A DNA stretch of 48,034 nt, taken from the IMG/VR virus record IMGVR_UViG_3300005611_000048, positions 1-48,034 of that record. One strand, given 5' to 3'. The stretch is from a virus (Duplodnaviria > Caudoviricetes). Each line of letters starts with the position of its first letter. Position 1 is the stretch's first letter. Under the pieces are notes generated by a model. That model had not been told where the DNA came from. It saw only the letters and a list, made by a program, of their open reading frames with translations, and did not search any database. The translations under genes and the position numbers were made by a program. Positions 2,294 through 38,869 of the stretch are shown piece by piece.

Positions 2294-4297
2294 ATGGTAG
2301 ATGAATATAAGGTAACAGATCAAGAAATCTTTAGTCTGACGAACTTAGCTGAGATCCTTGATGAGGATACCGTAAAGACTTTAGGTAAGGATCTACTACA
2401 CCTAATTGAAGGGGATATAGAGTCCCGTAAAGGATGGCTATCTAGAATGGATGCCGCTATGCGTTTAGCGGTTCAAGTAGTGGAGAAGAAGAACACACCT
2501 TGGGAGAATGCTTCCAATGTTAAAGTTCCGGTAGTAACCAATGCTTGTATACAGTTCCAATCTCGTGCTCTTACGGCATTAGTAGACTCTTCTCAGCCAG
2601 TACGGTGTAAGGTTCTAGGTAAGGATAAGTCTCAAAGCAAACTAGCTAGAGCTATCCGAGTACAGAATTATATGTCTTGGCAGTTATTGCATGACATGGA
2701 GGAGTGGGAAGACGACATGGATCGTCTTTTATTTGTTCTTGCTATGTTAGGTGTTTGCTACAAGAAGACTCACTATAGTCCTCACCTTAAACGTATTGTA
2801 TCGGATATTATCTTACCTCAAGATCTAATCATAAACTACGATGCTAAGAATTTTTATGAAGCACGTAAGACTGAAAGGATTGAAGTAAGTAAGAATGAAG
2901 TATTCGAGCTTAAGGCTGAAGGTCTTTGGTTAGATGTAGATGTAGAGTTCGAGAGACCTGCTAATGATCCCAACAAGGAGCGGGATAACGCTAAAGGTCT
3001 AGTACAGACTCAAAACGTAGAAGATACTCCTATGTATGGTTATGAGTGTCACTGTCTGGTTGATCTAGATAGTGATGGCTACAAAGAGCCTTACGTAGTG
3101 ACTATGGATAACAAAGGTACAATTGTAAGGATTACTCCTCGCTTTGAAGAAGAGGATATTATAACTGATGATAAGGGTAATCTAATTAAGATTGAAGCTG
3201 AGAATTACTTTACTCAGTATATCTTTATTCCTGATCCTCACTCATCTGTATCTGGTATTGGTTATGGTGTATTACTTGGCCCTAATAATGAAGCCGTAAA
3301 CACAATGATTAACCAACTAATAGATGCCTCCACTAAGTCAGTAATGGGTGGTGGATTTATTGGTAGAGGTGCTAGACTTAAAGGTGGAAGGTTGAAGCTG
3401 GCTATGGGTCAATACACTCATGTACCAGTATCAGGAGATGACTTACGTAAGAATATAGTTGATGCTCCAGTACCTAAACCAGATCCTACTATGTTTCAGC
3501 TTGCAGTATTCTTAATGAATCAGGCTGAGAGTACAGGTAGTCTTACTGATATGATGCAGGGTCAAAACCCCGGACAGAATCAGAAGGTTGGTACTACAAT
3601 GGCTGTCCTTGAAGAAGGTATGAAGGTTTATCAGTCTATACATCGACGACTTCATAGGGCATTCTCTAGAGAGCTTGTACAACTATACAAGCTAAACAGG
3701 ATGTTCTTCAACGAGCAAGAGTATAACGCTTTACTTGATGAAGTACCTTCAGAAGAAGAGATACAACAAGTAATCGCTCAAAATGGTGGTAACGAGCAGC
3801 AGCTTCAAATGGCTCTGGAGAAGCGTCAAGCTATGTTAGAGGCTGGAGAGAAGGACTTTGCAGAGGAAGGGTTAGATATTATACCTAACTCAGATCCTAA
3901 GTCAGTATCTCAATCACTACAACTTATTAAATCACAAAGCCTATTAGAAAAGATGATGATCTTAGGCTTGAATAGACAGGAAGTTGCAAAACGTGTGTTA
4001 GCAGCAGAACAGCATCAGGATGTAGAAGCCCTAATGCAGCCTAACCCAGAACCACCTTCAATAGAGCAACTAGAGTACCAGTTAGCTGTTATGAAAGAGA
4101 TGAGGGAAGGTGTTACTGCTTATACCAATAACATCAAAACAATCGCAGAGGCCGAGGCTATAGAACCCGGTCGCCAGTTAGAAGCTTACAAAGCTACTAT
4201 GGATCAGATTAATAAGCAACTAGATAGAGAGCAAAATGAAAAGACTCAACAACAAGCACCTGTACAACCTAATAACAGGGGCAATGGAATCAGCTAG
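2294..4297 (+). CDS. portal protein
   Basis: 667 aa directly after terL; PWENASNV, DLDSDGYKEPYVVT and GIGYG motifs typical of podovirus portals; Q-rich coiled-coil C-terminus. Confidence 0.88.
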   Translation: MVDEYKVTDQEIFSLTNLAEILDEDTVKTLGKDLLHLIEGDIESRKGWLSRMDAAMRLAVQVVEKKNTPWENASNVKVPVVTNACIQFQSRALTALVDSSQPVRCKVLGKDKSQSKLARAIRVQNYMSWQLLHDMEEWEDDMDRLLFVLAMLGVCYKKTHYSPHLKRIVSDIILPQDLIINYDAKNFYEARKTERIEVSKNEVFELKAEGLWLDVDVEFERPANDPNKERDNAKGLVQTQNVEDTPMYGYECHCLVDLDSDGYKEPYVVTMDNKGTIVRITPRFEEEDIITDDKGNLIKIEAENYFTQYIFIPDPHSSVSGIGYGVLLGPNNEAVNTMINQLIDASTKSVMGGGFIGRGARLKGGRLKLAMGQYTHVPVSGDDLRKNIVDAPVPKPDPTMFQLAVFLMNQAESTGSLTDMMQGQNPGQNQKVGTTMAVLEEGMKVYQSIHRRLHRAFSRELVQLYKLNRMFFNEQEYNALLDEVPSEEEIQQVIAQNGGNEQQLQMALEKRQAMLEAGEKDFAEEGLDIIPNSDPKSVSQSLQLIKSQSLLEKMMILGLNRQEVAKRVLAAEQHQDVEALMQPNPEPPSIEQLEYQLAVMKEMREGVTAYTNNIKTIAEAEAIEPGRQLEAYKATMDQINKQLDREQNEKTQQQAPVQPNNRGNGIS

Positions 4298-4562
4298 GCT
4301 AGAAGCTGATGACTTAGACAATGCTATTAGTAAAGAAGACCGTAAGTTATGGTATAACTCCAAGCTTACACAACAATTGTTAGCGCATTTACGTTTAGAG
4401 TATTTCGACGTACTTTCACAAGTAGCGGTAGGAGACTTTAATACGGTAGATGAACTTGCAATACAACACTCGCAGCAAAAGGCGGTGTTGGAACAACTAG
4501 AAAATGTAGTAGACTTCATAGAGGAAACAAAACTAGACCATGACAATAAACTGGAAGCCTAA
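4284..4562 (+). CDS. hypothetical protein (head module)
   Basis: ORF 4236..4562; the likelier start is ATG 4284 after AGGGG; lies between portal and GroES. Confidence 0.65.
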   Translation: MESARLEADDLDNAISKEDRKLWYNSKLTQQLLAHLRLEYFDVLSQVAVGDFNTVDELAIQHSQQKAVLEQLENVVDFIEETKLDHDNKLEA

Positions 4563-4857
4563 AGGTTATCGAGTAGTAATAAAACCTAAAGACGTTGAAG
4601 AGGTTGATGAGAAGTCAGGTATTATACTTAAGACTAGGGTTGATAATCTTGACAAAGCCAAGGAAATTGTAGGGGTTGTTCTAGCCGTATCAGATATGGC
4701 ATGGCAATGGACAGACTCCAAAGAGCCTTGGGCTAAGGTAGGTGATACCGTAGCATTTGTACAATATAGTGGAAAGGTTTTAGAAGACCCTAAAACTGGA
4801 GAAACTTATACAATCATCAACGACGAAAACATAGTAGCGGTGCTAGACGATGAGTAA
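4540..4857 (+). CDS. groES: co-chaperonin GroES (Cpn10)-like protein
   Basis: KPKGYRVVIKP, mobile loop SGIIL, GVVLAV, KVGDTV.F.QYSG, YTIINDENIVAVL. Confidence 0.9.
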   Translation: MTINWKPKGYRVVIKPKDVEEVDEKSGIILKTRVDNLDKAKEIVGVVLAVSDMAWQWTDSKEPWAKVGDTVAFVQYSGKVLEDPKTGETYTIINDENIVAVLDDE

Positions 4858-5635
4858 AGAACACGAACAACAAGAAGATAAGGCTCGTGCAAACGGGTGG
4901 AAGCCTTTAGAAGAGTTTGATGGTAATAAGGATGATTGGATCTCTGCCAAAGAGTTTAATACTCGTGGTAATCTGATCGCCCAGATTCAAACTGCTAAAA
5001 GCCAAAGCTCTGCACTAAAGTCTGAGATCGACGAAATGAAAGGGACTTTTAAGGAATTCCAAAAATTCCATGAGCAAGCCCTTGAGAACGAAAGAAAAGA
5101 AGCTAAAAAGGAGTTGATGGCAGAGAAAGCTGCCGCACTTAAAGATAATAATACGGATCGCGTGGTAGAGATTGATGAGGACTTAGCTCTTATCCGAGAT
5201 GAGGAGAAGAAAGCTAAAGCTGAAAAACAAGAGAAGCCACAAAAAACTTCAGAAGATCCGGCTGTGCAAAAGTTCGCTCAAGCACATCCAGAGTTTGAAG
5301 AAGATCCCGTTCTACAAGGAGCATTTGCCTCCGTTGTTCAAAAGAATAGAGCACTAGATCCTAGTAAGTCTCCAGCAGAAATCTTGCAAGAGTCCTATGA
5401 CGAACTAGTGGAACTGAAACCCCAACTATTTGACTTTGAGGAAGAAGAGGAAAAGCCTAAGAGACAATCTAAGGTTTCTTCTTATGGTAAAAGGACTTCT
5501 AAAAGTTCGAGTGGTAAGGCAACCGCCGCTGACCTAGACGACTATGCTCGTGAGGTTGGTACAAAGTTTGTTAAGATGGGGTTGATTAAAGACCTAGACA
5601 CTTACGCACAGCAACTAGCGGCTGACGAAGGATAG
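4850..5635 (+). CDS. putative capsid scaffolding protein
   Basis: Charged coiled-coil protein (ARANGWKP.EEF.G...W...KEF N-terminus) upstream of the capsid genes. Confidence 0.65.
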   Translation: MSKEHEQQEDKARANGWKPLEEFDGNKDDWISAKEFNTRGNLIAQIQTAKSQSSALKSEIDEMKGTFKEFQKFHEQALENERKEAKKELMAEKAAALKDNNTDRVVEIDEDLALIRDEEKKAKAEKQEKPQKTSEDPAVQKFAQAHPEFEEDPVLQGAFASVVQKNRALDPSKSPAEILQESYDELVELKPQLFDFEEEEEKPKRQSKVSSYGKRTSKSSSGKATAADLDDYAREVGTKFVKMGLIKDLDTYAQQLAADEG

Positions 5636-25195: not shown

Positions 25196-27073
25196 TTACA
25201 ATTGTGTTAAGTACTTCTCTTCCCAATAGTCTGTAGTTCCCCAATGAGTGCCTACTTCTGATTCAGTCTCCATAGGTACTACGAAATCATAATCATATAG
25301 CTTTTTAAAGAGCATCATAGCATCCACTGTAAGCCCATGTGAGGCTAGTTTAGGTATAATCTCAGTCTCGTCTGGATGAACCTCGGATTCCACTGAGTCA
25401 TGCACTGTGTTGACAAGGAAGGACTTTAGATTCAGAGATCTCATCCTATGCCACATACAAGTGACCATGAAAGGAGTACCTTCTGCTGTAGCACCATTCT
25501 GACAGAAATAGTTACATATCTCATTAGAGTGGGTAGCAAATGATCCATCATGATTCCACTTAGCATAAGGCCAGTAGAATACTAATCCAGTGAAGATTCT
25601 GAGCTGCTTATCGGTTACAACTTGAGCAATCATCTCTTCCTGTAGTTCACCTATCTGCTCATGCTTATCTATAAACGCTGTATAGTATGCCCTCTGCTTA
25701 GGTGTACCTGATCTACCGTAGTAAAGAGGCTTAAAGGTATCTGATTTAGCTTCAGTCCTTAGAGCCTTCTTCTCAGCAGATCCGTCAGGTAGTGAGTCAT
25801 ACTCATCAAACAAGGTTGAAGCTGTAAGATAGTGTACATCCTCTCCTGCCTCTATAGCGGCCATACCATTAGCATCACGAGCATGGTTGACATAGAACCT
25901 GTACTCGAACTGAGCTACATCATCCTCCTCAAAGATCCACCCATCATGTCTAGCTTTGAATAGTGGCTTGAACTCCCTGTTCATGTTCTGGTACTGGATT
26001 GCATACTTCTTACCAGTACTAGTAAGTCTATGAGTAGCTGCTATGGTCTGATTTAGATTGGCATAGAGAACTCCATCCTCTTTAGCACAGTCATAGAGCT
26101 TCTTAAGCCAAGTAACACGAGTATCCATCTTAGCACGATTCTTAAATACTTCGATGAACTCTCTCTGCTTCTTGTTCTTTGGTTTAAGTTTAGCTATGGT
26201 ATCCTTATCTGACTTAGGTACACCATCAGGCCACTCTTCGGAAATCTTATTAACTAAAGGTTTACCGCGATGATCTGTAGGTATCTTAAAGCCAAGATCT
26301 ACATAGATAGCTTGAGCCATCTGTTTAGGAGACTTAGGATTAACATTGCCTAGAAGCTTATTAAAGCGAGTATTCCACTCGTGCAGTTCGTCACACTCCC
26401 GAAGGTACAATGTCTTAACACGCTCTAGATCTGGAACCATGCCCCGCATTTCAATATCCGCTAAGACAGGAGTAAATAAACACCTAGCATACATTACATT
26501 GAGTAATCCATGCTTAACGTGATACGCTCGTTGTCTTAGGAATAACTCCTCTGAAGCATCAACATCTATCCAGCAATACTTAAGAAGGTATCTCTCATCT
26601 ATGTTAGAAGGACATACCCCATCTTTGATTAAGCCGGATACAAGGGAGTCTTTGAGGAAAGGTATACCCCAACGCTTGAGACAAGCATCAAGATTAAACT
26701 TCCATTTACGATTACCTGCTATGATGTAGTCTGCAATCTGGGTACAGAATATAGGCTTAGCACCAATATCGAATCCACAACGGTCTAGCCATTGCAATTC
26801 AAACTTAGCATTATGAGCTACGATGAACTCACAGTTGTACAAGTCTTCAAGTAACTCACCAACATCAAAGACACCACCGAATACATGCTTCTTGGTACGG
26901 TGACCACCTTTAACGACAGTCCAGCATGACAGTACTAAGCTGTTCTCTTCGTAAGCGGCAAAGCCTTTCTCGTAGTTTGTAGTCTCGAAGTCAAGTACAA
27001 CGTAATCATCTTTAAGGTATATTGTAGGGTCAGGGTTCTCTATGTAATAAGGGAGTTGCCCTAGACTTGTCAA
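25196..27073 (-). CDS. DNA polymerase family A with 3'-5' exonuclease domain
   Basis: Exo motifs LDFET, AHNAKFE and Y..ID; polymerase motifs THRLTS, QYQN, DVAQFEYR (A), RTEAKSDTFKPLY (B), VHDS (C). Confidence 0.93.
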   Translation of the reverse strand: MTSLGQLPYYIENPDPTIYLKDDYVVLDFETTNYEKGFAAYEENSLVLSCWTVVKGGHRTKKHVFGGVFDVGELLEDLYNCEFIVAHNAKFELQWLDRCGFDIGAKPIFCTQIADYIIAGNRKWKFNLDACLKRWGIPFLKDSLVSGLIKDGVCPSNIDERYLLKYCWIDVDASEELFLRQRAYHVKHGLLNVMYARCLFTPVLADIEMRGMVPDLERVKTLYLRECDELHEWNTRFNKLLGNVNPKSPKQMAQAIYVDLGFKIPTDHRGKPLVNKISEEWPDGVPKSDKDTIAKLKPKNKKQREFIEVFKNRAKMDTRVTWLKKLYDCAKEDGVLYANLNQTIAATHRLTSTGKKYAIQYQNMNREFKPLFKARHDGWIFEEDDVAQFEYRFYVNHARDANGMAAIEAGEDVHYLTASTLFDEYDSLPDGSAEKKALRTEAKSDTFKPLYYGRSGTPKQRAYYTAFIDKHEQIGELQEEMIAQVVTDKQLRIFTGLVFYWPYAKWNHDGSFATHSNEICNYFCQNGATAEGTPFMVTCMWHRMRSLNLKSFLVNTVHDSVESEVHPDETEIIPKLASHGLTVDAMMLFKKLYDYDFVVPMETESEVGTHWGTTDYWEEKYLTQL

Positions 27074-27759
27074 ATAAGATCTCCTATGTAGTAACCTTTA
27101 AACTGAGAGAGGAACTCATCAGTATGGATACCTTCATTATACTGCACCCAGAGGTATATGTCAAGGTCTGGATGTGTTTTACGTATAATATCATACAACA
27201 TTTGTACTGTAGCACCACCTCCTAGAATATCATCTATCAAGACTATAGCGGTAGTGTCTGGAGCAAGACTATTCATAGATAGATCTACACGCAAGACCTT
27301 ACCATTAACCCTAACCTTCTTAGCACAAGGTAGAGTGCCTAGAGTAAACTTTTCTACTGAGGCATCACAACCTATATACTGTATACTATTACCAGAGGTT
27401 ATACCTAAACTATTCTCTATAGTAAAAGCAGATATAAGGGCAGATTTAATCTTATCCGTAGACTCGTGCTGTATCTGGAAACAGGTTATATCCAGTAAGT
27501 GTAAGAGTTGGTATATGTTAGCTACAGGGTAAAGATCCTTATCCCCTCTAAGGTGTTCTACATATCCTGATACATTAACAGGGAACTTATTGATAAAGTT
27601 ACGTTGTAACCCAAGCCAAGAGTTAAAAGCTAGTAGAGATACAAAGGTCTTACTGTCTATAGTGTCTACGTGCAAAACACCTTGTTCAAGTATAGAGGGA
27701 AAGTTAGATGTATCTAACTCCCCTTGCCCCCTCTTGTAGTATTTAAAAGTTTCAAACAT
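27070..27759 (-). CDS. divergent PRPP-synthetase-like protein (candidate ADPR-PP synthetase, NARP1 Adps-like)
   Basis: PRTase loop IVLIDDILGGGATV; degenerate PRS motifs HLRGDK, CDASV and CAKKVR; coupled to a NAMPT-like gene. Confidence 0.7.
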   Translation of the reverse strand: MFETFKYYKRGQGELDTSNFPSILEQGVLHVDTIDSKTFVSLLAFNSWLGLQRNFINKFPVNVSGYVEHLRGDKDLYPVANIYQLLHLLDITCFQIQHESTDKIKSALISAFTIENSLGITSGNSIQYIGCDASVEKFTLGTLPCAKKVRVNGKVLRVDLSMNSLAPDTTAIVLIDDILGGGATVQMLYDIIRKTHPDLDIYLWVQYNEGIHTDEFLSQFKGYYIGDLI

Positions 27760-29084
27760 TAGTATACCTGTTTAAGTTCAGGGTTAGTATTAGGTGTAAA
27801 CCTTCCGGTTAAAGACTTCTTACCACTATCAGTCTTAGGATCTTTCTGGATGTTAACCCACTCTCCATTACGCTCAACTGCCGTAGCTTTAAAAGCTAGT
27901 CCTAGCTCGTCCCTAGTCATGAGCTGATAAGTGTATGCACCTACTCCAAATACGATGTTAAGAGGAGAGTATCCTTTGCTAACCATTGTACTCAACATCT
28001 TATCAATGGTCTGCTGTGTCATACCATCTCCGTATATAAGTCCTATATGACTATCCAATACCTTAAGACCTTTAGAGTCTAAAGTATGTCCGAAGATGCT
28101 ATCAAGAATCTCTAGAGAAGATTCATGTCCCTCATCATCACCACAGATAATCTTAACTGGATCTCCTGAGTCAGGTCTAATCACTACCTTTCCATCACGA
28201 GCCATAATCTTATCTTTTAATTGCGGTAAAATATTCTTGAGAACATTAAAATAGTCCCAAGCATCAGACACAAGACTAACAATGCCTGTAGGGTATAGGT
28301 CGATAATCCTATCATAAGTGTCAAGTTCTGAGTCTGAACCCCCGGCGCACATGACACTGTGCTCAGTAGCAGGGACAGAGAAGCCAGTAACCTCTCCATA
28401 ATAATACTCCATATTCATAATAGCTGGTATAGTGTCAGAACCTTTGAACTGTGACAAGTGACCACAGCCTATAACTGCTGCTGCATCGTCACCAGCCATA
28501 CCTCTATAGGAGAAGTCATGACACATAAAATCAATAGCTTCTTTCTCTTCAGGGGTATAACCTTCAAAGTAACCTTCAATAGTGTTACGGATGTTCCATG
28601 CCCTGTTAGCAGCCGTAGTAACTCCCCACACGTTAGATAGTAATGAGGTTTCGATAAAAGAAGTTAACCAAGCAAACTCGTCAATAGTATTCTCTACAGT
28701 CAATAAAGGAGTCTGTAAATTGCATACCGACCGCTCCTCTACTGAATGAATAATTAAAGGTAGCTGACGTTCTTCCCATAAATCTCTCCAATGATTTATA
28801 GAGTTATCACCACCTAGACGTTCATCTAAAAAGTCTTTATAAGCTTCTAACTCCTCTTCCATCTGGTAGTGGGTTAAACTAAAGAACCAATCACTAAAGG
28901 AGTCTAACTTAGCTAAGTATAACTCTAGTCCAAACCAAAAGAACTTCTCTTGGTCAATGTACTCATTATAGTTTACAGATCTTGCGGTAAGTACACTATG
29001 CACCTTAGTAACATCTTTAGGGTATTGCTCTTTATGAGATACCTTATAAAAGTCTGCGGCGTACATAAGTTTATGGGGTGTCAT
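27759..29084 (-). CDS. nicotinamide phosphoribosyltransferase-like protein (candidate NARP1 Namat)
   Basis: DFYKVSH..QYP, HDFSYRG, GSDT, SVPATEHSVM, SLVSDAWD, VIRPDSGDP, IYGDG, FGVG..TYQ..TRD, KDPKTD.GKKS. Confidence 0.92.
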   Translation of the reverse strand: MTPHKLMYAADFYKVSHKEQYPKDVTKVHSVLTARSVNYNEYIDQEKFFWFGLELYLAKLDSFSDWFFSLTHYQMEEELEAYKDFLDERLGGDNSINHWRDLWEERQLPLIIHSVEERSVCNLQTPLLTVENTIDEFAWLTSFIETSLLSNVWGVTTAANRAWNIRNTIEGYFEGYTPEEKEAIDFMCHDFSYRGMAGDDAAAVIGCGHLSQFKGSDTIPAIMNMEYYYGEVTGFSVPATEHSVMCAGGSDSELDTYDRIIDLYPTGIVSLVSDAWDYFNVLKNILPQLKDKIMARDGKVVIRPDSGDPVKIICGDDEGHESSLEILDSIFGHTLDSKGLKVLDSHIGLIYGDGMTQQTIDKMLSTMVSKGYSPLNIVFGVGAYTYQLMTRDELGLAFKATAVERNGEWVNIQKDPKTDSGKKSLTGRFTPNTNPELKQVY

Positions 29085-31022: not shown

Positions 31023-31487
31023 TTAGTTAAATATCAGTTCAGGGAATTTTCTACATATCTTAGCTATGTCTTTAAAGCTAACACCGTCATCGTTTAGTAT
31101 TGTAAGATCCACACCATAGCCCTCAATACCAAGAACCATCTCTCTATATGACTCAAGTAAGGCTACTGTTGTTTCTGTTTCTAAAGTATTCAGAAATTCT
31201 AAAAATTGTGTAATGTTATACTTATTTAGAGCTATAACTCCCGTAGTAGATTTTAACTTTAAATCATCGTTAACACCTCTATAAGTATCAGGACTAAGAG
31301 TTTGCTCTAAGGTTACATCCCACTCATGCGGCTCTAGTACAACACTAGGATGTAGCATACAGGCTATACCTAGACAACAAAAGCCCTTAGATTCCTGACC
31401 ATATAGCTCGGCAGGATGTTGCTTATAACCTCCACTATCAAGAGCTTCCAACCACTCAAGCTGAAACTCATTAAACTCATAGCTCAT
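31023..31487 (-). CDS. hypothetical protein, paralogue of 38450..38869
   Basis: WLEALDSGGYKQ...GFCCLGIAC...LNDD..SF.DIA. Confidence 0.75.
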   Translation of the reverse strand: MSYEFNEFQLEWLEALDSGGYKQHPAELYGQESKGFCCLGIACMLHPSVVLEPHEWDVTLEQTLSPDTYRGVNDDLKLKSTTGVIALNKYNITQFLEFLNTLETETTVALLESYREMVLGIEGYGVDLTILNDDGVSFKDIAKICRKFPELIFN

Positions 31488-31672
31488 CGTTTTCTCCTAA
31501 ACAGTTTAAAGATAATAAGACCTGATACATAGAGTAGCAGGGAGGAAGGTATAGGTACTGAAGTTATAATAGGTTGAGCTATTACCGAAGGATCACAATG
31601 CTTAATTACATTATCAATAAAGCATATGGATATAGGGTCAGGGTTAACTACAAAGAGGTCTAAGGTATTCAT
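31484..31672 (-). CDS. small protein with PEP-CTERM/VPLPA-CTERM-like sorting signal
   Basis: C-terminus VPIPSS-LLLYVSGLIIFKLF-RRKR: motif, TM helix, basic cluster. Confidence 0.7.
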   Translation of the reverse strand: MNTLDLFVVNPDPISICFIDNVIKHCDPSVIAQPIITSVPIPSSLLLYVSGLIIFKLFRRKR

Positions 31673-32568
31673 GATAAGAAAGAGTCTATAGGGTATGATC
31701 CGTCCATAGCGGCTTGAGGATTACCCCATTGATCCATAAGCTGCAAATTTAAGTTCTGCTGACCACCTGCAAATACCGCTACCCATTCAAACCCGTGATC
31801 CTCACACATCTTGAGCATAGTATCCATCTCAGACTTAGTAGGCATTCTCCAGTAATTATCTCTTACTGGTAAATCTCCTTGACCAAAGCCTTGTAGTATA
31901 GGTACAGCACCACTACCTCCTCGGTAGTATAGCTCCTCAAGAAAATCTGTAAAATCTAGGTTCATCTTATCCTTGTAGATACGATCAATATGACCTATAT
32001 GCCTACGCAAAGGATAGTGTCTAGCAGCTATATAATCGGGCTGAAGCATATCAACCACAAAATCACAGTAGTCAGTACGATAGTCTGGATTATTATCGTA
32101 AGGATCTGTTTTTGCATTAGTAAAAGCTTCTCCTATTAATGCGGTCATTATAGGTAGATGCTTTGTTATCTCATGACCTCTTAGAAAATTATACTGAGTT
32201 AATGCTTGCTGTGTAGCAAAGTAAGTTTTAGGCTCATCTTTAACTAATAATCTAGTGGTAACAGGATCTTGATAAAGAAACTCATACGTAGTAGGGTGTG
32301 ACCATCCTCCTTGATCAGGGAGTTTGGCATGATACCATAACTCTATAGATTGAGATCTTAGATGCTCTAGAAAGAACATAGGGATTGTAGTATCCATAAA
32401 ATTCCAGCTACGAGGACGAGCTTTATAGGCATCGAAACTATAATCTTTTAACTTATCAAGTATAGTACTGTGATAGCTTAGTATATCTTGATTACCAAGG
32501 TCTTTGTTGAAACGATGACCAAAGGCATCTTTTATAAAATCAAATTTGTAGTAAAGACATACCTTCAT
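31669..32568 (-). CDS. hypothetical protein, possible glycoside-hydrolase-like barrel
   Basis: ORF 31669..32613; likelier start 32568 (MKVCLYY, AAGGAG RBS); HYP...PILQGFG...RMPT.SE pattern. Confidence 0.5.
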   Translation of the reverse strand: MKVCLYYKFDFIKDAFGHRFNKDLGNQDILSYHSTILDKLKDYSFDAYKARPRSWNFMDTTIPMFFLEHLRSQSIELWYHAKLPDQGGWSHPTTYEFLYQDPVTTRLLVKDEPKTYFATQQALTQYNFLRGHEITKHLPIMTALIGEAFTNAKTDPYDNNPDYRTDYCDFVVDMLQPDYIAARHYPLRRHIGHIDRIYKDKMNLDFTDFLEELYYRGGSGAVPILQGFGQGDLPVRDNYWRMPTKSEMDTMLKMCEDHGFEWVAVFAGGQQNLNLQLMDQWGNPQAAMDGSYPIDSFLS

Positions 32569-33376
32569 TGATCTGCTCCTTAGTGCAGTCTTTAGGATCT
32601 TTAGGTAAAGCAAGAACCTTAGAGTTAATAAACAGGCTCAAATCTTTCTCCATCCTTCTAGCTATAGACTGAGCATCAGGATCTAAAGCTAGTACAACAG
32701 TCTCTATCCACTCGGCTTCCTTGAGATACTCTGCAAACCATTCTATGTTCAAGGATGTACCATTTAATGCCATTGCAGACTTATTCATACAAGCTAACTT
32801 AATCGCATCCATGCACCCTTCTACTATAAATAGCTCCTTGCTACGTCCTACGTTAGGGAAGTAGTAGTATGGTATACCTTGTATATGTGGGTAGAGCTTA
32901 CTCTTACGTCTTTCTTTTGGTTTGTGGTTAATAGACTTTCTACAAGTACCTATTAGTTTACCTTCACGGTAGATAGGGAAGTGTAGGAACTTAAGTCCTG
33001 AGAAGTCTTCTAGTTCAAAGGTAACACCTTCTTGAGTGAATACTTCAATATCTTCATCAGAGAAGTTATACTTAGCTTTGAGTGTAGACCATATAGGTGT
33101 CTGTTCATCTAGAGGCCAAGCCTCACCTTCAAAGTACTTAGGTTTAAATACTTTCTTCTGGTTATGTGATCCAGACTTTAGTGCAGAGTTAGATACAATC
33201 CTACCCTTGGTATTACATGAAGCTCTCTTACATTGGTACAGTAGTCTGTCACCATCACGAGTAAGGATAAAAGTCTCTTCATGAGCTGCGGTGCAGTTAG
33301 GGCATACTGTTCTTAAGGTTTGACCATCTTCGAGGCTTAAACCTAAAAGACGTATCTCGTTTCGTAGACTTGTCAT
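32540..33376 (-). CDS. DNA primase (Zn finger + TOPRIM)
   Basis: CPNC...C.RASC zinc-binding domain; IVEGCMDAIKL, ALNGT, LALDPDA, DPKD. Confidence 0.9.
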   Translation of the reverse strand: MTSLRNEIRLLGLSLEDGQTLRTVCPNCTAAHEETFILTRDGDRLLYQCKRASCNTKGRIVSNSALKSGSHNQKKVFKPKYFEGEAWPLDEQTPIWSTLKAKYNFSDEDIEVFTQEGVTFELEDFSGLKFLHFPIYREGKLIGTCRKSINHKPKERRKSKLYPHIQGIPYYYFPNVGRSKELFIVEGCMDAIKLACMNKSAMALNGTSLNIEWFAEYLKEAEWIETVVLALDPDAQSIARRMEKDLSLFINSKVLALPKDPKDCTKEQINEGMSLLQI

Positions 33377-34169: not shown

Positions 34170-35234
34170 TTAGGCTTGGTAAGAAACATCAGCCATTAGA
34201 GAAGTCCAGTACTCTACCTCAATACTTGCAGTAATGGGACTAGTAAAGGAGGCTCTATTACGATTACTCTTAACAAATATATCTATTTGGTCTGTGTGAG
34301 GATTATGTTCAGCAAAGAACTCTATGTTACTTGTCTTATGCTTAAAGAACATTCGGTCATTAACCCATGAGAGAGTCTTATAATCTTGATGGTAGGTAAG
34401 ATTATCCTGCTCATCAAAATCCCAGACCTGATCATCTAAAGTATCACCAAGACCTGCCAAAAGAGGGTATCCTGTATCGTCATCTATCGAAGATTGTGCT
34501 GCAATCTGACTAGATAGTGATTGAAAGTCTGAGGTAACAGGTAAGTGTCTAAGATTACCTTTGGTAATATACTTAGGTTTAGGCTTAGATACACTCTGTT
34601 CTAGTAAGAGATCAATCTCATTGTACATAGCTTCAAACTGAGGCTTATCAATAAAGTAATCCAGTACTTCATGTACAATGCCATGCTTCATAGAGTAGAA
34701 GTCAATCTTAACTCGACCACTACTGTTAACAATGCCTCGAACATAATAGTCCATATTATCACGTACTTCTGAGATAAGGTCAGCAATCATATCTTCATCA
34801 GTACCAGAAGGTGTAACCCCTAGACTACCGGGATGTAAGTGGAACCAAGCATTAAATAACTCACCTTCATTACGACTCTTAACGTAATCAGCCTTACATA
34901 ATGCTAGGGATATTTTATCAATTTCAGTAGTAGTAGGAGTACATACCTGCTTAGGTATCCAGAACTTATCTATGTAGACTTGGTTAGTCTCTTCGTTGTA
35001 GGTGGTAGCCATGTACCAACCCACCTCATCTTTTCTATCTAGACCTATAATATGACTTACCATCTCCCAAGCTTCTTCAGAGAATACAGCTACAGGAGGT
35101 TTAGTAGCAGGCTTCCTAAGATCTGTTAAAGGAGAAGTCTTAGGAGTAAGAGAGTTAGAAGAGACTTCGTAGGAAGCTTCGGGCGCAGTAACAACAGGCT
35201 TGTTATTCTGCTTATTGGATCTTTTCTTGGCCAT
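34170..35234 (-). CDS. JAB/JAMM (MPN+) metallo-isopeptidase domain protein
   Basis: DEVGW ... IPKQ ... WFHLHPGSLGVTPSGTDE = E...HxH...SxxD zinc motif; extra C-terminal region. Confidence 0.85.
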   Translation of the reverse strand: MAKKRSNKQNNKPVVTAPEASYEVSSNSLTPKTSPLTDLRKPATKPPVAVFSEEAWEMVSHIIGLDRKDEVGWYMATTYNEETNQVYIDKFWIPKQVCTPTTTEIDKISLALCKADYVKSRNEGELFNAWFHLHPGSLGVTPSGTDEDMIADLISEVRDNMDYYVRGIVNSSGRVKIDFYSMKHGIVHEVLDYFIDKPQFEAMYNEIDLLLEQSVSKPKPKYITKGNLRHLPVTSDFQSLSSQIAAQSSIDDDTGYPLLAGLGDTLDDQVWDFDEQDNLTYHQDYKTLSWVNDRMFFKHKTSNIEFFAEHNPHTDQIDIFVKSNRNRASFTSPITASIEVEYWTSLMADVSYQA

Positions 35235-35239
35235 AAGGA

Positions 35240-35929
35240 TTATTTCTCCATTAAGTGCATGAACATAGGTTTAGTGATATAGTGGTGTTTAAAGGGAGCT
35301 TGATAACCTTTCATAAGGTTCATCATTTGTTGTACGGCTATTGATGACAGTACATTAACAACGGGGTTAATAGTCTGTGAAGTACCACACGCTGTACCAG
35401 TATCAACTTCTTCTACCTCGAAGAGTGTGTCCTTATATCTATCCGTAGTATCTCCTATGAGATCAGAGAAGGTGTAAACAAAGCCATAACCAAACCCAAC
35501 CCTAACATCAATAAAGAAGGCTGGATTATATTGATGATCATTAACAAATTTAGCGCGAGTATCTATACCGTCTACAGCTAAGAATACAATTACAGGTTTA
35601 TTGTCATACTCCCTGCCGAGGCTAAGAGTTTCTAGCTTAAGGTTATGGAATTTCCAGCTATCCTTAGATATACCCGTCTTATCTTCACATAGCTCCCGCA
35701 TAGCATCAGCCTTATACATACCAATATGTCTTTGGTAGAAAGCTTGATTACCTATGTTATGCTCCTCAACCTTATCGAAGTCATAAGCCACAATATCTCT
35801 AGGATGCATACCCAAGGATACTAAGTTCTCAATAACTTTAGAACCAACTGCCCCAAGACCTACAACAACTACAGAAGGAGCCTTATCAGGATTGAATGCT
35901 AGGATAGATCTAGAAATATCTATAGCCAT
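35240..35929 (-). CDS. E1-like ThiF/MoeB-family adenylyltransferase
   Basis: VVVGLGAVGS, DFDKVEEHNIGNQ, IGMYKA, LAVDG..TR, IDVRVG and putative catalytic Cys in GTACG. Confidence 0.92.
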   Translation of the reverse strand: MAIDISRSILAFNPDKAPSVVVVGLGAVGSKVIENLVSLGMHPRDIVAYDFDKVEEHNIGNQAFYQRHIGMYKADAMRELCEDKTGISKDSWKFHNLKLETLSLGREYDNKPVIVFLAVDGIDTRAKFVNDHQYNPAFFIDVRVGFGYGFVYTFSDLIGDTTDRYKDTLFEVEEVDTGTACGTSQTINPVVNVLSSIAVQQMMNLMKGYQAPFKHHYITKPMFMHLMEK

Positions 35930-36873
35930 TGTAGTACCTCATTATGTTTTACAATATTATCTCTCATAATAACATCTCCTTTAGTCTTTAGGTGATGCTC
36001 TATGCTAGGCATAGCCTCTCTCATATAGCCTGTCTCTTTACCCCAATCATCATTTGAATTAAAAGAGGTCATGTACTTGTAGAGTAAAGCCCAAAAGAGA
36101 GTATAATTGCCCGCCTTTAAAGCTATATTTATTGAGTTTTTAGTTAACCCTCCTAGACATAACGCATTTCCAGTATAAATCTCACCATCGCGCCTTGCAC
36201 TACCTACTCTATCATAATATAGTCTTGGATGTGCAAGAACTCCCTCAGATATATGAGGATGAGGTTTGCATAGATACAAGTCTCTAGACCACACGAAAAG
36301 CTCTAAAGACCCTCCACTTGTAGTAGTATTTCCTACCTCTATCTGCCATTTCCAAGGAGGTAGTATTAAGGGACTTTGAATATGCTCAATATCCCTACAT
36401 ACCATACTACGAGTAAGGAATGTTATTAATAGCTTATCATTTGTAATTTTCCAAGAAGCTCTACGTATGTAGTTAAACCTTTTAGAAGCTTTTACAAATG
36501 CATCAGGGTTTATAATAGTGTTAAGGTCTGAGCTACAGTAAGCCTCTAAAGGGAAATTACCATATAGCTTAGCTTTATAATTAGCTAGTATAGCTCTAGA
36601 ATCTCTTAAAGAATATAAGTTATTCCTTATACTATAGCTTATTTTACTGATAAAATCAAGCTTTGAGTTTACATAGTAATTTACATTACTATGAAACCCT
36701 CCTTTAGCAGTATTTAGTCTATATACTTCCATATAAGCTAAAGATCTTTTCTTATAAGAAGATTTAATTCTATCTTTAAGACTCTCTACTCTCCGAGAGT
36801 AGTGGTTATACTCAGACACCATAGCAGAGTAACTAGAATTTAATTTAATAATCTCGAATAAAGTATCAGGCAT
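35920..36873 (-). CDS. putative prokaryotic E2-like conjugating enzyme with N-terminal coiled coil
   Basis: Beta strands, then PHPHI...HPR...ALCLG (E2 HPx...C pattern), then helices ending FNSNDDWG; lies between Ubl and E1. Confidence 0.65.
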   Translation of the reverse strand: MPDTLFEIIKLNSSYSAMVSEYNHYSRRVESLKDRIKSSYKKRSLAYMEVYRLNTAKGGFHSNVNYYVNSKLDFISKISYSIRNNLYSLRDSRAILANYKAKLYGNFPLEAYCSSDLNTIINPDAFVKASKRFNYIRRASWKITNDKLLITFLTRSMVCRDIEHIQSPLILPPWKWQIEVGNTTTSGGSLELFVWSRDLYLCKPHPHISEGVLAHPRLYYDRVGSARRDGEIYTGNALCLGGLTKNSINIALKAGNYTLFWALLYKYMTSFNSNDDWGKETGYMREAMPSIEHHLKTKGDVIMRDNIVKHNEVLQWL

Positions 36874-36900
36874 ATTATAAACCTCTGCAAAATAATATAT

Positions 36901-36938
36901 TTTAGAATACCCTCTCCAGAGGAAAGGGCATCTTTAAA
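36901..36938 (-). promoter_or_regulatory. RNA hairpin between the Ubl and E2-like genes
   Basis: Minus strand GATGCCCTTTCC-TCT-GGAGAGGGTATT, a 12 bp stem with G-U pairs and no clean U tract. Confidence 0.55.
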
Positions 36939-36950
36939 ACATACTAAGTA

Positions 36951-37184
36951 TTAAGCACCTTGTACGTTTTTGTTACCTGCTTCAACAGCGATACCACCCG
37001 AAGAACCAACAGCAGTTTCAGCTAGGTTAGTACCTTCAGGAACAACAAAGTTGTCAGGGTTAAGTCCAGCATCTTCCAACGCTGTACGTACAATACAACC
37101 TACTGCAACTTCAATGGTCTTTTCTGAGCCATCCGCTTTGATGACAGTAAGTGTAGCTTTCTTTGACATATCTAATTGTGACAT
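36951..37184 (-). CDS. ubiquitin-like (beta-grasp) protein
   Basis: 77 aa; strand-strand-helix start (ATLTVIKADG-EKTIEV-AVG-IVRTALEDAGLN), tail NKNVQGA with penultimate Gly; strong GAGGAG RBS; heads an E2-E1-JAB cluster. Confidence 0.75.
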   Translation of the reverse strand: MSQLDMSKKATLTVIKADGSEKTIEVAVGCIVRTALEDAGLNPDNFVVPEGTNLAETAVGSSGGIAVEAGNKNVQGA

Positions 37185-38253: not shown

Positions 38254-38463
38254 CTAATCTCTTAAATCAAAAGCGTAATCCCTGCCCTCTATTAAGCCAT
38301 AGAATTGAGGATAGTGGGATACAGGTGCATTTTCTTGAGGAGGTAAGCCCGATTCACCATAGGCTAGAGTAGTAACCTCGTTACCCTCTTGAAGGAATGC
38401 CGCAGTCTGAGCCTCGATGACAGTACTTAACTCTACTTTATCAGGATCTCTAGTTGGATACAT
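38254..38463 (-). CDS. SutA RNAP-binding-domain-like protein
   Basis: IEAQTAAFLQEGNEVTTL.YGESG resembles the SutA core (helix ending F-L-x-x-G-G-x-V). Confidence 0.55.
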   Translation of the reverse strand: MYPTRDPDKVELSTVIEAQTAAFLQEGNEVTTLAYGESGLPPQENAPVSHYPQFYGLIEGRDYAFDLRD

Positions 38464-38869
38464 AAGGAATCTCTATCTCATGGTTAATTAAAAGGTAAGC
38501 TATCTGATCAAAGGTAAGCTTATACTTATCGTTTAGATCTGCGAGTCCTACACGATCTTCTGCGAGAACATCATTAGATTTAATATAAAATATTAAATTC
38601 TCTGGAAGAATCTCACTAGTACCTGATACAAGGAATATAGGGTCTAGCATTCCTCCGGGCATTAATTGAGTATTTATAACCTCTGAACCCTGTGTATACT
38701 CAAGTACACCTAAGCAGCAGAAACCTCTTCGACCTTTAAGCATACCTCTACATTGCTCATAATCACCACTGGCTAAATCCTCTGCCCACTGTTCAAGTGT
38801 AGCAGCATTTCTTTTATCTTCAAGTACATGACGGTGATCATCACATATCTGCACACTAATCTTTCTCAT
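38450..38869 (-). CDS. hypothetical protein, paralogue of 31023..31487
   Basis: WAEDLASGDYEQ...GFCCLGVL...LADLND...TFDQIA. Confidence 0.75.
   Translation of the reverse strand: MRKISVQICDDHRHVLEDKRNAATLEQWAEDLASGDYEQCRGMLKGRRGFCCLGVLEYTQGSEVINTQLMPGGMLDPIFLVSGTSEILPENLIFYIKSNDVLAEDRVGLADLNDKYKLTFDQIAYLLINHEIEIPYVSN

Follow-up and report, generated by a model that had tools for sequence, protein, structure and literature searches.

Can a tailed phage encode a complete ubiquitin-like conjugation pathway of its own, and what would such a pathway do in the infected cell? The question is raised by a 48,034-nt stretch of tailed-phage DNA (IMG/VR record IMGVR_UViG_3300005611_000048, a viral record estimated to be 62% complete; the whole stretch is called the window here), for which a preliminary description made from the letters alone had claimed four contiguous same-strand genes at 34170-37184, encoding a ubiquitin-like protein (Ubl), an E2-like protein, an E1 adenylase and a JAB/JAMM metallopeptidase, and had read them as a phage-owned protein-tagging machine. 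The coordinates, lengths and motifs of the four genes are all as claimed (Table 1), and the module is a real, conserved and mostly phage-borne ubiquitin-like system with an uncatalogued E2 family. The tagging machine finds support in the four genes and the folds or motifs of their products, in the conservation of catalytic residues and in the joint occurrence of the genes elsewhere, from which we infer the conjugation steps; the module probably attaches its own tag to proteins of the infected cell during the phase of DNA replication. Bacterial ubiquitin-like conjugation has so far been shown as a host function only, and a phage-owned version, if true, adds covalent protein tagging to the viral takeover of bacterial cells.

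Locus and gene layout

Genes for a terminase, capsid, head-tail connectors and tail collar identify the window as tailed-phage DNA. Of these, the terminase, capsid and connectors are encoded on the plus strand; the minus strand encodes polymerase A, ribonucleotide reductase, a primase and a helicase, the last two lying 0.8-4 kb downstream of the cassette. Taken in the order Ubl, E2, E1 and JAB, the cassette genes are spaced by a 77 bp gap, a 10-bp overlap and a 5 bp gap, each is preceded by a purine-rich leader, and 309 bp lie between JAB and the next gene. A metagenome contig (L057) is identical to the window across 8,181 bp, and a related strain from marine metagenome run X1 has the same gene content and order at ~91-92% identity, with 25 of the 38 listed changes in its JAB gene at third codon positions (40 of 281 changes being visible). 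The window sequence and its four-gene cassette are sound.

Proteins of the cassette

Of the four proteins, the E1 alone has a relevant match in Pfam, NCBIfam, PHROGs or PADLOC; the identities of the Ubl, E2-like protein and JAB, which match no relevant family, depend on profile, motif and fold tests. The E1, described earlier as a ThiF-family adenylase, matches Pfam ThiF over residues 19-217 of 229 (E 4e-18, 65.8 bits), and its ATP-site residues and Cys181 are invariant in 50/50 E1s (Gly24, Gly26, Gly29, Asp50, Asp52, Lys73, Asp120, Arg143 and Cys181). The top solved-structure match of the E1 profile is UBA5 (E 4e-15), and we take the window E1 to be like the Atg7 type as well. CxxC pairs are missing in 64 of 67 family E1s, including the window E1, which has two Cys in total.

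The 317 aa protein has a UBC fold and a conserved Cys, in agreement with its proposed E2-like role. A leave-out profile finds it at E 1.3e-7, the next unrelated open reading frame (ORF) scoring 0.28, and it reaches 29.4 bits against a shuffle maximum of 5.3. The presumed catalytic Cys is kept in 49/49 family members and the His..Cys-x-Gly pattern in 149/149 library matches (137 by pattern, 12 by eye); in the predicted structure the loop ahead of Cys239 has a predicted local distance difference test score (pLDDT) below 50, and the fold comparison gave ranges, not residue pairs. The family is large, with 4,585 representatives (50% identity) at E<=0.001 and no database model, the window member itself having no family match in Pfam/NCBIfam scans. 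None of 49 E2 domains matches Prok-E2_D, and the nearest named Atlas cluster (0.85) has Prok-E2_D in 39% of its members, which is a lead only; the window E2 may be distantly related to Prok-E2_D. Family members span 132 to >1,600 aa, some with Cys-rich tails, and in the window protein 8/8 a/d heptad positions of the N-terminal arm, starting at residue 8, are hydrophobic, making this extension a candidate target-binding or dimer arm. In locus L036 two tandem, weakly similar genes (2916-4232 and 4142-5407, E 5e-4) occupy the E2 position; the E2 profile detects the first but not the second.

The peptidase has the JAMM residues ascribed to it (Glu, His-x-His and Ser-x-x-Asp), and they are conserved: His132, His134, Ser143 and Asp146 are invariant in 9/9 JABs, while among the profile matches H-x-H..S-x-x-D occurs in 80/80 and the upstream Glu pattern in 61/66. 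The JAB profile matches Rpn11 (E 5e-7), CSN5 and JAMM1, and the window JAB has a template modelling (TM) score of 0.79 against an Atlas Prok-JAB cluster.

The window Ubl is a small beta-grasp protein with an activatable C-terminal Gly, as had been suggested for the 77 aa product. By our own classification, in which one tail is ambiguous, the 33 distinct Ubl tails comprise 19 with Gly plus a variable cap (among them KG-N, RG-SW, GG-DQ, IQG-EKR and the window's VQG-A), 2 that are Gly-terminal and 12 with Ala at or near the end, these last all from one gut clade and with the Ala terminal or ahead of a short cap. Tandem two-domain Ubls, in which KG then N closes each repeat (L064:1000-1416, L013 and L022:6806-7252), resemble polyubiquitin precursors, and repeats that each end in KG-N need a peptidase. 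In a quick tree that places it on a long branch, the window E1 clusters with those of L001 and L013 (support 92) and more loosely with those of other KG-N loci (80). Given the tail survey, the tandem KG-N repeats and the grouping of the E1 with the KG-N clade, Gly76 is likely the activated residue. Direct activation of Ala77 is possible but less likely, and is considered because Ala-ended tags occur in related loci and in CBASS (PMC10097602; here and below, statements from cited papers refer to the available parts of each). For E. aridi BilA, its own JAB cuts between Gly97 and Ala98 and conjugation goes via E1 and E2 cysteines (PMC10557695), and the cut is an exact precedent for the removal of Ala77 from the window Ubl. 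Several gut-clade Ubls end in K-x-[DNQ]-N-A with Gly absent (L002:2552-2779, L015, L016, L019, L023, L025 and L033), a pattern that suggests activation of the terminal Ala. Elsewhere a Ubl domain opens proteins of 185-206 aa with an uncharacterised C-terminal part (L026:2540-3160, L029:3043-3648, L109:7881-8492 and L063:5706-6263).

Table 1. Positions of the cassette genes, their domains and their proposed active residues in the window.
Feature	Position	Strand	Remarks
Ubl	36951-37184	minus	77 aa; single beta-grasp; C-terminus NKNVQGA; predicted precursor
Gly76 of Ubl	36957-36959	minus	capped by Ala77
E2-like protein	35920-36873	minus	317 aa; family without Pfam or NCBIfam model
N-terminal extension of E2-like protein	36553-36873	minus	residues 1-107; predicted coiled coil
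UBC-like domain of E2-like protein	35974-36552	minus	residues 108-300; HPH 205-207, LCLG
Cys239 of E2-like protein	36157-36159	minus	in LCLG
Minimal E1 (ThiF/MoeB-type adenylase)	35240-35929	minus	229 aa; GxGxxG, YDFDKVEEHN, TACG
Cys181 of E1	35387-35389	minus	lone Cys at crossover-loop position
JAB/JAMM metallopeptidase	34170-35234	minus	354 aa; Glu70, His132, His134, Ser143, Asp146
JAB catalytic domain	34590-35102	minus	~residues 45-215; variable C-terminal tail beyond

Distribution in phages and bacteria

Searches with the E1 gave 55 viral and 36 metagenome loci, several of the latter repeating viral ones. All four genes are present in 40 of the 41 viral loci with 4.1 kb or more of sequence upstream of E1 (the count omits 14 shorter loci, and L001, in which the Ubl was undetected, is the exception), a count that shows co-location and not independent detection, since the profiles were trained on the same loci; crAss-type Ubls required a separate profile. 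An ORF matching the E2 profile lies within 1.5 kb upstream of JAB in 57/57 loci, and the gene order is E2-JAB-E1 in 64 of the 66 loci with all three, the exceptions being the window and its identical copy. The four genes do occur together elsewhere, as the preliminary description expected. Sampling of the neighbours (147 proteins taken from 320 neighbour clusters) gave mostly replication and recombination genes, which adjoin the cassette in a number of separate clades, with primase found in crAss001 and Fpv3, ERF and a DnaB-like helicase in L039/L045, and DnaB and primase in L014.

The cassette is rare yet present in bacteria. A pattern scan of 185,579 bacterial genomes gave two loci, neither holding the cassette. 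The E2 profile, which is more sensitive, matched 2 of 401 genomes of one phylum and 4 of 400 of one class; of these six genomes out of 801, four have all four genes (with E2 and E1 broken in one of them), a fifth has three of the genes on a 3.2-kb contig, and the sixth lacks them all. One bacterial copy (L110:4765-10611), with E2 and E1 each split over ORFs, adjoins genes for a Mu Gam-like protein and an ATP-dependent DNA ligase and looks like a decaying prophage-like island. A gut-clade reverse transcriptase gene (Pfam RVT_1, YADD) follows E1 by ~0.2-1.3 kb at 22 loci, some of them duplicates (L002, L003, L015-L034, e.g. L019:7295-8449; also L106:9578-10717 and L109:11955-12869); it is retained in bacterial copies of the cassette and absent from the window.

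Among cultured phages, the E1s of relatives retrieve crAss001, DAC15, DAC17, Fpv phages and Xanthomonas jumbo phages. The block gp79-gp78-gp77-gp76 of crAss001 follows the primase, with similar blocks in Fpv3 and bajarodcaudo virus 1, and its four positions are those of the cassette family; gp76 scores with the E1 profile (E 2e-27) and gp77 with the JAB profile (E 5e-17), gp78 carries HSH..PCTG, and gp79 has KIKSG followed by a tail, the KSG motif and tail being found in seven other crAss-type proteins. The crAss block differs in that its Ubl bears a tail of 140-200 aa. Profiles built without crAss-type rows fail to recover the crAss-type E2 (gp78) and Ubl, so the E2 status of gp78 depends on position and motif. 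In a map of beta-group crAss-like phages, four genes conserved next to the primase are labelled 'ThiF family', 'MPN, metalloprotease' and, in two cases, 'uncharacterized' (PMC7886860 Supplementary Fig. 2B); the E1-MPN pair is thus already on record, and the available parts of that paper do not call the block ubiquitin-like. Replication genes of crAss001 are middle genes, on at 10-30 minutes (PMC8375218), and as the available text of that study does not name gp76 and gp77, the timing of the cassette is read from its position. Xanthomonas phage PhiXhv-12 (L095:2736-6612) encodes a small protein ending in KASGG, an 892-aa HPH..LCLG E2-like protein with a Cys-rich tail, which outscores 100/100 shuffles yet reaches just 2.9 bits, and an E1, with no JAB found within 12.5 kb. 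Because crAss001 and Fpv3 can be cultured and have a block of similar arrangement, the idea of phage-owned tagging is testable now, and the window's compact set (77, 317, 229 and 354 aa) is convenient for reconstitution.

Comparison with known systems

The closest likeness is to Bil (BilA Ubl, BilB E2, BilC JAB and BilD E1), which also has four separate genes with equal roles (PMC10557695, PMC11601596, PMC11601603), a Ubl with a conserved Gly and non-conserved cap (Gly-Ala in both E. aridi and the window), and a Cys in E1 and E2 with no E3. BilD, however, is built as IAD-AAD-CYS with a four-Cys zinc site, whereas the window E1 is one 229-aa ThiF domain without CxxC pairs, and on these grounds identity with Bil was rejected. 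The window E2 further differs in its long variable N-terminal arm and in having no database model, and Bil is a host defence whereas the window cassette sits in the replication arm of a phage.

Stand-alone Ubl, E2-like, JAB and E1 genes on mobile DNA, with a putative function, are also the make-up of the PRTRC systems (class 6d of Iyer, Burroughs and Aravind 2006; PMC1779556). This identity was rejected by NCBIfam, the E1 scoring 43.9 bits with TIGR03736 against a cut-off of 144.75 (relatives, where listed, 32-43 bits), and the other PRTRC models match neither the window proteins at E<=1 nor, at E<=0.01, any of 35 related proteins (Ubl, E2 and JAB). An E2 of the Prok-E2_D family and a JAB with a JAB-N domain are marks of class 6d, and the PRTRC cassette is accompanied by ParB and an additional helical gene; neither ParB nor this fifth gene is in the window, and ParB is 1 of the 147 neighbour proteins (L074). 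In type II CBASS, Cap2 is an E2-E1 fusion and its substrate a cyclase (PMC10097602), neither cyclase nor effector being found near the window cassette; separate E2 and E1 genes and the lack of a nucleotidyl cyclase in the window led us to reject this assignment, and the PADLOC E1-E2 models cover just the ATP-binding part of the window E1. Bub (class 6E) shares a JAB-processed Ubl precursor and E1 and E2-like domains, but has Tyr/Ser oxyesters, gene fusions and the BubE protease (PMC11601596), whereas in the window family both enzymes have an invariant Cys and the genes are separate, so that Bub too was rejected; DUF6527 (BubE) had no match in the window or neighbour-protein scans.

In the literature searched we found no description of a phage-encoded Ubl-E1-E2-JAB system; most subscription papers and bioRxiv supplements lie outside it, and an earlier description there is possible. 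In their available parts, PMC11601596, PMC11601603, PMC10557695 and PMC10097602 treat ubiquitin-like systems as host-encoded, Iyer 2006 notes for phages only tail-assembly Ubl and JAB (PMC1779556), and term searches of the main texts of PMC7886860, PMC6235969 and PMC11360552 gave no mention of a phage ubiquitin-like system.

Proposed mechanism and alternatives

In the mechanism that we favour, the JAB peptidase would cut off Ala77 and expose Gly76, which a homodimer of the minimal E1 would adenylate with ATP, passing the tag into a thioester on Cys181; the tag would then move to Cys239 of the E2-like protein, which, without a separate E3, would join it through isopeptide bonds to lysines in proteins of the host or the phage. 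The variable N-terminal arm of the E2 probably steers the choice of target, the JAB may also take the tag off, and the likely purpose would be to reshape or disable proteins important for phage replication. More tentatively, and as a view to which we give rather less credence, ubiquitin-type ligation could be a constant component of the replication programme in many tailed phages that are unrelated to one another, cultured crAss-like gut phages among them. The pathway would be the phages' own, with an uncatalogued class of E2 that selects host targets through a swappable N-terminal arm, with polyubiquitin-like precursors and with Ala-ended tags, and would be an offensive, virus-side counterpart of Bil and CBASS conjugation.

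The same chemistry might instead serve as a Bil-like weapon with which the phage, or its integrated form, attacks competing phages, the tagging of their virion proteins being one example. The characterised bacterial relatives Bil and CBASS are antiphage (PMC11601596, PMC11601603), bacterial copies of the cassette exist, some adjoining recombinase, reverse transcriptase or Gam genes, and an integrase adjoins it in L004; yet in related phages the cassette keeps to one position in the replication block (as also in the labels of Yutin 2021, Supplementary Fig. 2B), unlike patchy cargo, PADLOC models match none of Ubl, E2 and JAB, and the E2 profile matched so few of the sampled bacterial genomes that we consider the weapon unlikely. 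A further possibility, which we rate as quite improbable, is a sulfur carrier of the ThiS, MoaD or TtuB type, whose Ubl thiocarboxylate would feed thio-modification of a cofactor, tRNA or DNA while the JAB only matured the Ubl. A conserved E1 Cys occurs in sulfur-transfer E1s too, Ubls of relatives match ThiS and SAMP2, public records widely name the E1 'thiamine biosynthesis protein', and NCBIfam ranks ThiF models best for the window E1. Every NCBIfam score is far below its cut-off, however (adenyl_thiF 49.5 against 275 bits). The preliminary description had noted the lack of sulfur-pathway partner genes, and indeed no rhodanese, desulfurase, thiouridylase, ThiG or MoaE was found among 64 scanned window ORFs (in a record ~62% complete) or the 147 neighbour proteins, though host partners could serve. 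The partner that stays constant has an E2 fold and an invariant Cys, which a sulfur relay could do without, and this constancy, together with the missing sulfur-pathway families, disfavours the relay; the thiamine label would be a misreading.

The remaining two alternatives accept part or all of the cascade. Instead of a protein lysine, the acceptor could be some lipid, nucleic acid or small amine, in the manner of Atg8, or the E2 carrying the tag could itself be the product, readings that fit a minimal E1 that is UBA5-like and, as we presume, Atg7-like, the lack of an E3 and the reverse transcriptase gene after E1 at the 22 gut-clade loci. The same caveat has been raised for CBASS (PMC10097602). 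As Bil and Cap2, the closest tested Cys-based E1/E2 systems, modify lysines (PMC10557695, PMC10097602) and the reverse transcriptase is limited to one clade, a non-lysine acceptor seems highly improbable for the window. Least probable of all in our estimation is a counter-defence decoy, in which the JAB would strip conjugates made by Bil or CBASS of the host, or the other three proteins (Ubl, E1 and E2) would drain the host cascade. Cap3 and BilC do cleave conjugates and can dampen their own systems (PMC10097602, PMC10557695, PMC11601596), but a decoy would have no need of all four genes with intact sites at 40/41 loci, and the Xanthomonas jumbo phage, keeping Ubl, E2-like protein and E1 without a JAB within the 12.5 kb, points to the ligase arm as the core.

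Other genes of the window

A 69-aa ORF 1 kb upstream of the Ubl gene (38254-38463, minus strand) weakly matches the SutA RNA-polymerase-binding domain (E 2e-5, 24.3 bits, below the 29.3 cut-off) and is a possible transcription modulator; the range of SutA, as we understand it, hints at a gammaproteobacterial host for the window phage. At 27070-29084 (minus) a nicotinamide phosphoribosyltransferase gene is followed by a 229-aa ORF with VLIDDILGGGAT, which we take to be a phosphoribosyltransferase-like motif, and with no Pfam match; the two are likely an NAD-salvage pair. ORFs 31023-31487 and 38450-38869 (minus), the latter weakly matching phrog_18067, have in common a GFCCLG motif and a C-terminal LND..F..IA pattern and are probable paralogues. 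A 314-aa ORF between primase and helicase (31669-32613, minus) has no Pfam or PHROG match, and a gene for a GroES-like co-chaperonin (4540-4857, plus; Pfam Cpn10, E 3e-11) lies within the head gene block.

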